In this document: positions 1,151 to 22,302 of the stretch, in pieces | How positions within the stretch are numbered: position 1 is the first letter of the stretch | Layout of the letters: each line of letters starts with the position of its first letter | UHGV virus genome: UHGV-1135478 | DNA: 22,302 nt | Direction: 5' to 3' (one strand) | From: a virus | The notes under the pieces: generated by a model | The model's database searches: none | What the model saw: only the letters and a program-made list of their open reading frames with translations | Told to the model about the DNA's origin: nothing | Made by a program: the position numbers and the translations under genes

Positions 1151-9166
<8,016 letters not shown>

Positions 9167-19257: not shown

Positions 19258-19472
19258 AGCAACTCCAGAATATCAATACGTTCACCTTTGAGTACTCCAG
19301 TACGGTCTCTTGCAATCTTACCATCAACAATAAGAATGTGCGCAGACTTTAAAGAGTCACCATTAAAACCTTTTACGAACTTACTAGGCATCACTACAAT
19401 GGACATCTCCTGAATCAACTCTGGAGTATAGCAATTGTCGTGAAGTTGCTGAATAACGTCTGCAAGTGTCAT
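19254..19472 (-). CDS. Hypothetical protein
   Basis: Start set to ATG 19470-19472 (MTLADVIQQ…), overlapping the upstream stop (ATGA); the ORF-track start 19487 is a TTG. Confidence 0.5.
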   Translation of the reverse strand: MTLADVIQQLHDNCYTPELIQEMSIVVMPSKFVKGFNGDSLKSAHILIVDGKIARDRTGVLKGERIDILELL

Positions 19473-19678
19473 TTTTGATGTCTCCAATACTCAATGTCAA
19501 TAAGTTCTTGTGCAATGCTTTTTAGATTACCTTTCAAGAAAACCTTCTCAGAACCTGAAAGAGATGAATTGTCAATTAACCTGTTCATTCTCTCAAACAA
19601 CTTCTGCTTACGGTTCTTGATAGTTTCCTTTGAAGCACCTTTCATCATTGCTGCATGGGTTCTTCCACGGTGGCTCAT
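19469..19678 (-). CDS. Hypothetical small basic protein
   Basis: 69 aa; strong RBS AGGAGG 5 nt before ATG 19676-19678. Confidence 0.6.
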   Translation of the reverse strand: MSHRGRTHAAMMKGASKETIKNRKQKLFERMNRLIDNSSLSGSEKVFLKGNLKSIAQELIDIEYWRHQK

Positions 19679-19704
19679 AAGCCCTCCTATACAAGATATA
19701 GTAT

Positions 19705-19733
19705 AAGGTACTCTTCCCTGAGCACCTTGTCAA
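19705..19733 (-). promoter_or_regulatory. Candidate promoter P3 (TTGACA-N17-TACCTT; weak -10)
   Basis: - strand -35 TTGACA at 19728-19733, overlapping the HNH stop; -10 TACCTT at 19705-19710; shares GTTGACAAG context with P2. Confidence 0.3.
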
Positions 19734-20266
19734 CTTAGTTTTGCAAACTCTCCGTGGAGTTTAATAGCAGCTTCACAGTAAGCTTTATGGGCTTCTTCAG
19801 GTGTGTCAAACATACCAAGATGATAGTTTTTACCTTGTAAACGTATCATTGCTCGAAACCTTTTATTTATCTTCTGTACACCTTTTGGCAACCCAGATTG
19901 GGACTTTCTTGACCGATTGCAAGAGTTTTGTGAAGCTGTACAAACCCTTAAATTCAAGTACCTATTGTCCCAACCGTCCCCATTCTTATGGTCAACCTGT
20001 AAGGTTTTATCAGGCAAATATCCATCCACATACAAGATAACTAAACGATTTGCTTGGTAACTCCTTCCATCAATCAGCAACTGAACTGACTTGTGTCCAT
20101 CAGTATTTGTTCTGTAGTTTCCAGCCCTCTTACCTCCAAATCTAGAGTTAAAATTTGCATTACCTTCTCTAAACTTCCAAGTAAAGACCCCTATTTCGGG
20201 GTCGTAGTCCAATAGCTCCTTAAGACGAATTTCTGTAATCATTTCAACACCATCAATGTACCTCAT
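19730..20266 (-). CDS. Free-standing HNH homing endonuclease with C-terminal AP2 DNA-binding domain
   Basis: HNH motif …LQVDHKNGDGWDNRYLNLRVCTASQN…; AP2-like segment …GVQKINKRFRAMIRLQGKNYHLGMFDTPEEAHKAYCEAAIKLHGEF…. Start set to ATG 20264-20266 (RBS AAGAG), overlapping the last 14 nt of the polymerase. Confidence 0.85.
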   Translation of the reverse strand: MRYIDGVEMITEIRLKELLDYDPEIGVFTWKFREGNANFNSRFGGKRAGNYRTNTDGHKSVQLLIDGRSYQANRLVILYVDGYLPDKTLQVDHKNGDGWDNRYLNLRVCTASQNSCNRSRKSQSGLPKGVQKINKRFRAMIRLQGKNYHLGMFDTPEEAHKAYCEAAIKLHGEFAKLS

Positions 20267-20809
20267 ACCAGCTCTTACCAACCTTACCTGTGCCAGTTAC
20301 AAGCGTCTCACTCTTCAAACCTAAATTCTTAGATGCCTGACCATACATCCAGTCAGTTATGGCTTTAACTTCTTGAGTCATACTTTCTGGGCATTCCCAA
20401 CTGTTCTCATCGTGGTATGCCAGCAAAAGTCTAGCACCAATTGCTGGTTTCCGTCCATTTAATTTTGTCAACCCTTCTTCACATGCTCTTCTACAAGCAA
20501 GGTTAATTGCCTCGTTCTGAATCTGACTTTCCGAACCCATGAGCAAATAATTCAATAACTTATGTGGAGATTTACACCACAACCAAGCTCCAGCAACCTT
20601 TACAAAACCCCCTTTAGAGATTGCAGCAGTCTTACCAAACACCTCTTCAAGTGCCTTTTTAGTTGCTTTGTAGTCAGCTTCCAAGTCATCTAGCAACTTC
20701 TTAATTTTAGGGAGGCGTACAAAGTAAGTTTGCTTAGTTAAAGCACCTTCTTCGGTTGTTGATGCTTTAATCGTCTTAGCAAACTTCTCATCACCTGCAC
20801 CGAACAATA
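20253..20809 (-). CDS. DNA polymerase, family A (T7 gp5 / Pol I type), exon 2 (C-terminal)
   Basis: Begins within motif B (…LFGAGDEKFAKT…, cf. T7 …FLYGAGDEKIG…); motif C YHDE; C-terminal …GKSWYEVH typical of family A. Confidence 0.85.
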
Positions 20810-21120
20810 CATCTGGTCAATACACTCGCAAGGTGTACCAGTTCTCTTATGAACTTCTCCGCATTTCTACGGAGTGTCGGACTATATCACGTAGTAGTAA
20901 TACTACCGTTGCACTTGGGAATGGTCATTAGCTTACCACCCTACTCTACTCAGTTCATACATTAAGTATGCTTTTCGATAGTCTCTGAACGTTTCTCTGT
21001 TAGGAATCTCTATAGTTATGTTATTTGCTTTAGGAGTCCTAACAGAGACTTCGCTGCTGATTACCATATCTTTACAGACTTAGGCTTCCAGCAATTCACA
21101 ACGTTTTACATGCGCCACTG
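20810..21120 (-). ncRNA. Group I self-splicing intron (311 nt, no ORF) in the DNA polymerase gene
   Basis: On the - strand: R element GTTCAGAGACTA (20979-20990) and S element GATATAGTCC (20879-20888) form the P7 core. Intron 5' region GCGCAT pairs with exon-1 end ATGCGT (P1, U-G at splice site). Intron ends in G. Stops in all frames. Confidence 0.8.
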
Positions 21121-22302
21121 ACGCATAAATGCCATTCTTAGCTTTCTTACGACCTTTGCTAATCTCATGAAGAAGATTCTCATCCTGAGTAGCTCGACAA
21201 GTCAAGATGTCCTGCTCATCGTTCAAGCTAAAGTAGATACTGTTCAGTGTATGTGCATCAGTCCCTGAATAGACAACGTACAGGTCATTCTCAGAGTCAT
21301 AGCGAAGGTACTTATCAATCTCTGGGTTGAGGTACTCATCAAAGTGTTTGCAGTAATAGCGTCCATCTTCTTGACGAATGAACTCAATCTCTTCTTTACC
21401 TTGTGTTACCGCTTTGGTGAAGTCTTTGTCACCCATAAAGTTACAAAGAAGAACTAGCTGGGCTGAGTTCATATCAACTGAAACAATGTTAGTCCCTTCT
21501 TCACAAGTCCACACCTCCCGCATAGGTGCTCCATAGACAGCAGCACCAGATGGTACGTTTACAATACCATATTGTGTCATACGCCCAGTTGAAGTACCAA
21601 ACACCATTGCACCAGCACTAAGGCGACCATCAGGACGAATCTGGTTCAACCAACCTTTTTCATCATCCTTTGAGTTCTCAATAGTTCTGCGTCTGTGCAT
21701 CAAAGTATAGTATTTAGCAATCTTCTGTCCAAGCTCACCTTCAATCGTATCATAAGATGATTCAGTAAGTTTTGGCGAAGTACGGATTAAGCAAGGCTCA
21801 AGCAAATCTGTGTACTTCTTCACAGACCAGTTATGCTCAATGTACTGGACACCTTCATGTTCAACATAACTCAAACCACACCGCTCAACCATTTCCTGCC
21901 ACTTAGGATGTTTTGTAATCATCTTTTTATTGTCTTTGAAACGACAAACTTTGACAGGACGACCATCTGAGTCTTTCTTGTAGTTCCAGTCATCTGGAAT
22001 CCAACCAACTGATTTCAAGTAGTCTTTAACAACTGCTACCTGAGTCATACGAGAAACTTCGAACTCAATTGGTGTATATGGTGCATCAATCAAACCTGTG
22101 TAGCGACTTGACTCAAGTTCAAAGTGGTTAACGACGTGGCTGTTATAGTACTTCACAGTTTTGACTGTTTTTACTGGTTTCCAGTCTTTGCATTTCTTAC
22201 CAATCTTTGCGTTCAACTCATTGCAAATTGCACGAGCATCCTTCATTGCTACAAAGCCTTCCTTGTACTCTTCACCAGTTACAGTGTTGGTTGGTGTATA
22301 GC
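21121..22302 (-). CDS. DNA polymerase, family A, exon 1 (N-terminal/middle part; 5' end beyond window)
   Basis: Frame open to window edge; contains motif-A-like …VSVDMNSAQLVLL… and the start of motif B …RKKAKNGIYA at the exon end. Predicted spliced junction …KNGIYA-LLFGAGDEK…. Confidence 0.85.

Follow-up and report, generated by a model that had tools for sequence, protein, structure and literature searches.

The window analysed here is the whole 22,302-nt stretch of virus genome UHGV-1135478, and our subject is a locus near its end at which a family A DNA polymerase gene, split by a group I intron, is followed by a free-standing endonuclease gene of the HNH-AP2 type. From 19600 to 22302 the sequence is 100% identical to that of Salmonella phage Mushroom (KP143762 / NC_041923; Ounavirinae, Felixounavirus), whose name we use for the locus, and all of its features lie on the minus strand. 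The same segment matches 258 related phage records at 70-99% identity, and 31 IMG/VR and 18 GenBank loci were classified both for their intron and for the state of the site behind the polymerase gene, which we call the slot.

Polymerase exons, intron and endonuclease gene

Exon 1 of the polymerase occupies 21121..22302 as its 3' part, the N-terminus lying past the window end, and was identified with Pfam DNA_pol_A and by alignment to the uninterrupted Alf5 polymerase and T3 gene 5. Alignment to the same two genes places exon 2 at 20253..20809, with 184 codons, motif C (HDE) and a TGA stop at 20255-20253. Exon 1 ends at 21121 (...ATTTATGCGT) and exon 2 starts at 20809 (TATTGTTCGG...). The end of exon 1 (...AAGAATGGCATTTATGCGT) falls within motif B (R-KK-AK-NG-IYA|LLFGAGDEK), where the junction aligns with T3 gene 5, and the Alf5 and T3 polymerases both run continuously across it. 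In Alf5 and 160 other records the exact absence of the intron restores the reading frame; the intron-less junction reads ...AATGGTATCTATGCAC|TGCTGTTCGGTGCAGG... and the intron-less insertion site ...AAGAATGGTATCTATGCACTGCTGTTCGGTGCAGGTGATGAG.... The splice junction ATTTATGCGT|TATTGTTCGG that a sequence-only reading of this DNA had proposed is thus exact, since intron-less relatives are continuous there. The GenBank and RefSeq records of Mushroom annotate no intron and give the polymerase as two coding sequences (gp036 and gp037), one of which runs into the intron and the other of which begins at an internal ATG.

The intron itself, at 20810..21120, is 311 nt long and scores 62.3 bits with the Rfam model RF00028 (gathering score 50). 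Its 5' splice site is preceded by a U that is paired with G in P1, P1 is formed by exon AUGCGU paired with intron GCGCAU, the last intron base is G, and there is no endonuclease open reading frame (ORF) within it. Given the viability of the many isolates that carry it, the intron would be expected to self-splice. A 44-aa ORF in the intron (20933-21067), annotated as a hypothetical protein in warpig_10 and EC106, spans the deletion scar described below and is probably spurious.

The gene that follows (gp038, 19730..20266), of the allele that we designate type A, encodes an HNH-AP2 endonuclease, as assigned from Pfam, PHROG and alignments. It matches Pfam HNH_3 (PF13392) with an E value of 7e-12 and 45.2 bits (cut-off 24.8) and PHROG 99, 'HNH endonuclease', at 8.5e-60. 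The HNH_3 catalytic core (VDHKNGDGWDNRYLNLRVCTASQN, 19922..20056) is placed by Pfam, by alignment to the I-HmuI structure 1U3E (E 0.0016 with the single sequence, 5.9e-9 with a profile of four alleles) and by its invariant columns, D84, H85, N93, N97-L98-R99 and N109 being the same in all of the allele types A-D. For the AP2-type DNA-binding domain (19751..19873), the single sequence reaches E 1e-5 and 26.2 bits against Pfam AP2, under the 33.3 cut-off, but the sister alleles B and C pass it at 38.1 and 48.1 bits, and the four-allele profile matches the plant AP2 structures of WRI1 (3.2e-11), ERF096 (2.8e-6) and AtERF1 (4.5e-5), so that the predicted domain is confirmed at the profile level. 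The sequence-only reading had seen a free-standing HNH-AP2 gene beside an endonuclease-less intron and not inside it, and this picture stands: the intron runs from 21120 to 20810, and the gene starts at 20266 or 20242. That reading also called AP2 a known module of phage HNH endonucleases, in agreement with the literature, where HNH/HNN-AP2 is a described architecture of free-standing phage enzymes (Magnani et al. 2004; Xp10, OP1, Xop411; PMC2248197). The HNN/HNH-AP2 genes of Xanthomonas phages are scattered and without conserved flanks, whereas those of the Mushroom group are four alleles in one bounded slot.

The endonuclease ORF ends at 19730 and has possible starts at 20281 (TTG), 20266 (ATG) and 20242 (ATG). 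The second of these is the GenBank start and gives a 14-nt overlap with the polymerase gene, much as the sequence-only reading had described (~14 nt), but it is missing in 6 of the 12 type A carriers, in which the polymerase codon is TTG and not TAT. The ATG at 20242 (MITEIRLKELL..., 170 aa) is common to all 12 and lies 10 nt past the polymerase stop, which suggests that the conserved start is probably one without overlap; the overlap holds for the annotated start and not for the shared one. The upstream ATG (20264-20266, polymerase codons TGG TAT GAG) is found in 6/6 intron-containing type A loci and 0/6 intron-less ones (TGG TTG GAA), a pattern that could reflect linkage or carry a functional meaning and does not itself tell which.

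If the ORF were a decaying or inactive relic, it would resemble the many homing endonuclease genes that degenerate after fixation, as described for HNN-AP2 genes (PMC2248197), and the single-sequence AP2 score under the Pfam cut-off would fit. However, all 31 slot endonuclease genes extracted have an intact ORF, the catalytic residues are invariant, the AP2 domain is recovered by the profile, and dN/dS among type A alleles is 0.04-0.12 at dS of 0.28-1.6, which argues that the protein is maintained and not decaying. We regard a relic as very improbable; the slot endonuclease looks active, its nuclease activity being predicted from this conservation.

The 5' codons of the gene (Y-D-P-E-x-G-V) also contain a hairpin, GACCCC-N6-GGGGTC at 20186..20203, followed by TTTACTT and recognised in an alignment across types A-D. 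Its stem codons, GAC CCC and GGG GTC, are fixed in all 31 type A-D genes (for instance at loci L040, L004 and L029), but the adjacent Tyr codon and the loop vary among them. In the Mushroom polymerase gene, CCC is used for 0/32 Pro codons and GGG for 5/64 Gly codons. The stem codons look to be under selection at the nucleotide level, and the hairpin may be an attenuator or terminator that limits endonuclease expression, or a recombination element. It alone stands out in the polymerase-endonuclease junction at 20150-20290, whose RNA folding as a whole was no more stable than that of shuffles (z -0.4).

The slot and its cassettes

In the 31 IMG/VR and 18 GenBank loci, the endonuclease gene occupies a fixed site that runs from the polymerase stop to a conserved TTGACAAGGTGCTC... 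element and is filled by one of four HNH-AP2 genes or else is just 6 nt long (TTAGTA). The empty slot reads ...CACTAA-TTAGTA-TTGACAAGG, with the stretches ...TGGCTTGAAGTACACTAATTAGTATTGACAAGGTGCTC... and ...GGTAAAAGCTGGCTTGAAGTACACTAATTAGTATTGACAAGGTGCTCATGG.... Over the 258 Ounavirinae records, slot state was scored with a query that joined the AP2 tail to the promoter-like element beyond it (full versus half coverage). The slot is filled in 156/258, the AP2 tail being contiguous with the promoter element, and the other 102/258 have the promoter alone.

At least four types of cassette were counted: A, the Mushroom allele; B, the Si3 type; C, the L27 type; and D, the Felix O1 type (ORF218). 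Their amino-acid identity is 42-55%, and they share common borders, on the left the last ~18 nt of the polymerase gene and on the right the last 72 nt of the AP2 domain together with the TTGACA box. In every slot endonuclease, whatever its type, these last 72 nt (19733-19804) are conserved at 93-100% identity, and the stop lies inside the TTGACA box; in Mushroom, it is a TGA at 19732-19730, which overlaps the TTGACA box belonging to the next promoter-like element. The A and C cassettes are found on 100% identical exon 2 sequences (HMD-P8/LNA1 versus L27), and the B cassette of EC106 follows an exon 2 otherwise characteristic of genomes with an empty slot, with the switch in the last 18 nt of the polymerase gene. 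The exchange junctions therefore lie at the polymerase stop. A divergent block of ~300 nt at the polymerase 3' end is linked to the A and B cassettes; the polymerase 3' haplotype was considered as a marker of endonuclease presence and rejected, the same haplotype being found with and without a cassette. On these alignments, the predicted HNH-AP2 gene is a free-standing gene of the homing-endonuclease type with exact presence/absence polymorphism, and the four allelic cassettes with their shared borders may compete for the slot.

The type A allele is not confined to genomes with an intron. At 97.8-98% nucleotide identity it is found behind an uninterrupted polymerase in Alf5, LMP25/33/34, ekra, adrianh, JK55, NRG857CP1, GE_vB_7A and others, and more distant copies, again with an uninterrupted polymerase, are present in Mooglevirus KPS64 and Suspvirus EP1. 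Felix O1 has no intron and a type D cassette. Its genome paper reports no introns and six HNH genes, and the statement on introns is correct for Felix O1 itself. A literature search found no paper on the Felixounavirus polymerase intron or slot, no published data for Felixounavirus endonucleases and no mention of 'F-TslI'.

The right border of the slot is the conserved intergenic element TTGACAAGGTGCTCAGGGAAGAGTACCTTATACTATATCTTGTATAGGAGG (19679..19733), recognised by its conservation across loci as the putative promoter and ribosome-binding site of the next gene. We infer that it acts as the promoter of that gene, although a scan for the sigma-70 consensus left the conserved TTGACA element unflagged as a full promoter. 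A terminator scan gave 1 site against 0.9 expected and is uninformative alone. The next gene in Mushroom is gp039 (19469..19678), with 69 aa and a match to PHROG 5180 (function unassigned), which is present or absent among relatives. In many relatives, the promoter-like element is followed directly by a homologue of the gene after gp039 (MTLSDVIQQLH...).

Recombination appears to have left its mark upstream of the intron as well. Exon 1 of Mushroom is 100% identical to that of Si3 over ~1100 nt, with an abrupt switch ~400 nt upstream of the intron, past which the two diverge by 20-24%, continuing through exon 2. HMD-P8 and LNA1 have a breakpoint at the same -400 position of exon 1, which appears to be a recurrent recombination boundary. 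Two GenBank records labelled 'Campylobacter phage A132/A126' (MG065664, MG065668) bear the Felixounavirus locus at 88-98% identity, and their host label or sample purity looks doubtful.

Intron forms and slot states across the Ounavirinae

An intron is present at the motif B site in 97/258 records. PC79-13, Si3 and ~40 other records carry a ~802-nt form of the Mushroom intron, whose P6 loop contains an ORF of 160 aa with a Pfam Endonuclease_7 match at 1.5e-19. The Mushroom intron lacks 491 nt that are found between the imperfect direct repeats GACTCCTAA and GACTACCTAA of the ORF-containing introns, and alignments to these introns put the approximate deletion scar, ...GACTCCTAA|GCAAATAA..., in the P6 loop at 21018..21036. 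The last codons and stop of the deleted ORF (AGC AAA TAA) are still in the Mushroom intron. By these alignments, the 311-nt intron is a deletion derivative of the ~802-nt intron, which has its own predicted endonuclease VII-type gene. A second ORF-less form, 268 nt long and with a short CCTCTTAAGAGG hairpin at P6, occurs in ~45 records; because haplotypes have recombined, the 19 variable columns of the intron core do not distinguish between an ancestral form and a second deletion. A search with the intron (20810-21120) as query also gave core matches, at 60-90% identity, in 22 records of Staphylococcus phages, 2 of Bacillus phages, 1 of an Erwinia phage and 4 of uncultured phages, and related introns therefore circulate in unrelated phage groups.

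Intron and slot vary independently of each other. The 311-nt intron is found with slot type A (Mushroom, NS7, Tf, warpig, garuso), B (EC106, NJ12) and C (S19cd), and the 268-nt intron with A (HMD-P8, LNA1), B and C. The ~802-nt intron with its ORF is accompanied by A (PC79-13), B (Si3) or an empty slot (BPS15Q2, FSL SP-010 and many others), and genomes without an intron have A, B, C, D or an empty slot. On this distribution, the intron and the HNH-AP2 gene are separate candidate mobile elements and not a fixed pair.

The distribution is nonetheless uneven. For intron carriers, the slot state was read from the record spans of composite queries. Among ORF-less introns checked singly, ~52/52 are accompanied by a slot endonuclease of type A, B or C (~10 with the 311-nt and ~42 with the 268-nt intron). 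ORF-containing introns have one in ~16 records and lack one in ~26 (~38% with), and intron-less genomes, counted by subtraction, have one in ~84 and lack one in ~76 (~52%). GEC_vB_BS was considered as a case of an ORF-less intron without endonuclease and rejected, because it really has a deletion of ~980 nt that runs from exon 2 +32 into the AP2 tail; it keeps that tail and so derives from an endonuclease-positive genome. This record (L044, MW006475, locus 3811-3910; 'complete genome') has the 311-nt intron; its deletion removes motif C, and the record represents an artefact of assembly or else a defective variant.

An ORF-less intron next to a free-standing endonuclease gene naturally recalls collaborative homing, in which a free-standing enzyme cuts intron-less alleles at the insertion site (PMC3984707, PMC2790892, PMC10448857), and this is the mechanism that the sequence-only reading had put forward. 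If it operated in a strict form here, the HNH-AP2 enzyme would cut the intron-less polymerase at the intron's insertion site, and the intron would protect its carrier and be co-copied with the endonuclease gene. An ORF-less intron and an adjacent free-standing HNH gene after a T7-like polymerase do make up a layout of the T3/PhiI type (PMC3984707, PMC10448857), each checked ORF-less intron is accompanied by a slot endonuclease, and the 311-nt intron has passed from one exon 2 background to another, its breakpoints being close to the insertion site. However, ~84 of the 156 slot-endonuclease carriers are intron-less, and the type A allele, 98% identical, is in at least 13 intron-less phages, other genera included, whose insertion site is unchanged. 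The Alf5 site is identical over 137 nt (88 left and 49 right) to that of an intron-less locus without endonuclease (L013) and has 0 mismatches within +/-30 nt against four endonuclease-less, intron-less genomes, and intron-less type B carriers have the same insertion-site sequence. That the site is unchanged in these carriers argues against cleavage at the intron site; as far as the genomes tell, those of the intron-less type A carriers are protected by neither intron nor site polymorphism. The cassette exchange junctions, moreover, are at the polymerase stop codon and not at the insertion site, and the intron has or had a homing gene of its own, of the endonuclease VII type. We consider strict collaborative homing improbable: relatives carry the endonuclease without a link to the polymerase intron, which is the outcome that the sequence-only reading itself had named as speaking against its proposal.

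Two intron-less type C loci from IMG/VR (L015 and L019, locus 3487-3500) have a hybrid insertion site, TATGCGT|TGCTG or |TACTG, which combines, on its 5' side, an allele otherwise seen only beside the intron with, on its 3' side, the intron-less allele. Loss of an intron, or a partial co-conversion, may have left this trace.

Proposed hitch-hiking and turnover, and related systems

Synteny with T3 is real, although the mechanism ascribed to T3 is not supported here in its strict form. In T3/PhiI, gene 5 and the HNH endonuclease gene 5.3 form a collaborative homing system (Bonocora and Shub 2009, as summarised in PMC3984707, PMC2790892 and PMC10448857). The T3 family A polymerase is homologous to that of Mushroom, with the C-terminal W-x-E-x-H included, and its HNH gene begins 10 nt after the polymerase stop, as the Mushroom gene does from its conserved start. 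T3 gp5.3 has 101 aa and lacks an AP2 domain, whereas the Mushroom enzyme has one; considered as a homologue of the slot endonuclease, gp5.3 was rejected, its match being marginal and limited to the HNH core (hhalign probability 28%), so that the likeness is one of synteny, without common descent of the endonucleases. Site differences are said to protect T3, whereas the insertion site of intron-less carriers in the Mushroom group is unaltered. Unlike the T3/PhiI intron, moreover, the Mushroom intron derives from one with its own endonuclease gene.

The explanation that we think probable, while holding it with some reserve, is that the slot gene is a homing endonuclease gene and the intron a separate, decayed element that at most hitch-hikes with it, the locus having taken its present form through endonuclease turnover. 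Transcription and translation of the slot gene would continue from the end of the polymerase message. In genomes with an empty slot or a different cassette, the gene product would nick or cut the DNA in the slot or close to it, and repair on the template of the endonuclease-carrying genome would then copy the cassette along with a variable stretch of flanking polymerase sequence. The intron would have reached motif B together with a homing gene of its own, of the endonuclease VII type, and would have lost that gene in the lineage of Mushroom by the 491-nt deletion between short direct repeats. It would now be a splicing-competent passenger that cleavage at its insertion site does not mobilise. 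Its own co-conversion tract, as seen in the comparison of Mushroom with Alf5, extends only ~10 nt upstream and ~100 nt downstream. The slot is 557 nt downstream of the intron (541-565 nt from the 3' splice site to the endonuclease start), less than the 2 kb over which co-conversion is known, and the intron, being within co-conversion range of the slot, could at most hitch-hike as in the trans homing of T4 MobE and I-TevIII. If intron and endonuclease are separate elements and the intronic gene was lost, then a layout like that of collaborative homing would have arisen by endonuclease turnover.

Among known systems, T4 MobE/I-TevIII is the closest mechanistic analogue, and the turnover model of Barth et al. 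the closest evolutionary one. In T4, the free-standing HNH endonuclease MobE acts in trans on the nrdB intron with its defunct I-TevIII, with co-conversion of up to 2 kb (Wilson and Edgell 2009, PMC2790892). Like the Mushroom slot gene, MobE lies beside an intron without a functional endonuclease of its own and within co-conversion distance of it, and its target is not at the insertion site, which makes it the closest match to the mechanism proposed here. The host gene is nrdB in T4 and polA in Mushroom, MobE has no AP2 domain, and the T4 intron ORF is truncated but present, whereas that of Mushroom is cleanly deleted. Dependence of the intron was demonstrated by crosses in T4 and in Mushroom is only suggested by distribution. 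Barth et al. 2023 offered endonuclease turnover as an alternative origin of collaborative-homing-like loci (PMC10448857), for the T5orf172 endonuclease and the terminase intron of ICP1 and without an intermediate series. In the Ounavirinae, all of the stages that their model predicts are present: the ORF-containing intron alone, the ORF-containing intron with a filled slot and the ORF-less intron with a filled slot.

Two further systems bear on the enzymes themselves. I-HmuI and I-HmuII of the Bacillus phages SPO1 and SP82 have an HNH core and a preceding DNA-binding region homologous to those of the slot enzyme, and I-HmuI likewise resides in a phage family A polymerase gene; I-HmuI is encoded inside its intron and has a helix-turn-helix C-terminal domain, whereas the slot enzyme is free-standing and has AP2. 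Since I-HmuI is a nickase, a nick is by analogy likely for the slot enzyme rather than a double-strand break. The endonuclease VII motif of the ORF lost from the Mushroom intron is also found in F-CphI of cyanophage S-PM2, which acts as a homing endonuclease (PMC6083498). F-CphI is free-standing and targets the intron site, whereas the endonuclease VII-type gene of the Mushroom group is the intronic one.

Several observations weigh against hitch-hiking with a slot-directed endonuclease. The proposed target site is deduced from population patterns only. Some HNH intron endonucleases, among them I-HmuI, nick the allele of their own genome too, as Goodrich-Blair and Shub reportedly described in 1996, so that nicking at the site is not strictly excluded by its being unchanged in carriers. 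The 311-nt intron is found on more than one exon 2 haplotype, with breakpoints that lie within ~50-250 nt of the point of insertion, and these could reflect breaks at that site, although they could equally result from later replacement of the 3' half by conversions centred on the slot. Behind the association between ORF-less introns and slot endonucleases are only two independent ORF-loss events and some six configurations, with no correction for phylogeny, and the individual check covered all but ~5 of the ~45 records that have the 268-nt intron. Finally, the exon 2 haplotype of the 268-nt intron is always endonuclease-positive, even when intron-less. Because the counts are not phylogenetically independent and this haplotype keeps its endonuclease without the intron, the link between ORF-less intron and slot endonuclease is suggestive only.

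These last points could also be accommodated if there were no functional link at all, the intron being a neutral, immobile passenger and the co-occurrence a product of shared ancestry and linkage. On the side of the endonuclease, the gene would then persist by its own homing cycles, or by cassettes that exclude the flanking markers of their rivals, as with I-HmuI/I-HmuII, and four allelic cassettes with common borders under strong purifying selection would be compatible with this. The free recombination of all intron and cassette states fits as well, as do the 268-nt haplotype and the small number of ORF-loss events. On the other hand, the contrast between ~52/52 for ORF-less introns and the two lower fractions for ORF-containing introns and intron-less genomes is seen with three cassette types and on no fewer than three exon 2 backgrounds, and at a distance of 557 nt some co-conversion would be expected if the enzyme is active (PMC2790892). 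We think the absence of any link unlikely, though a serious contender.

Hitch-hiking in the trail of a slot endonuclease, which we favour, can be extended to a broader proposal that we put forward tentatively, as possible without being probable. The Ounavirinae would preserve the whole turnover pathway, in which an intron with an endonuclease VII-type gene was joined by an HNH-AP2 cassette 557 nt away and the intronic gene was then purged. The ORF-less intron would persist only where a slot endonuclease drags it along, cassettes may compete with one another, and the hairpin may throttle their expression.

How composite mobile introns and loci resembling collaborative homing originate is still argued from few cases (T3/PhiI, S-PM2, T4 nrdB and ICP1). 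The Ounavirinae offer ~258 sequenced, culturable phage genomes with every combination of intron state and cassette at a single locus, and this set allows turnover with hitch-hiking to be tested directly against targeting of the insertion site. There are practical consequences as well: the polymerase is mis-annotated as two genes in many relatives, several of which are candidates for therapy or biocontrol, and the polymerase/slot locus is a recombination hot spot that distorts phylogenies.

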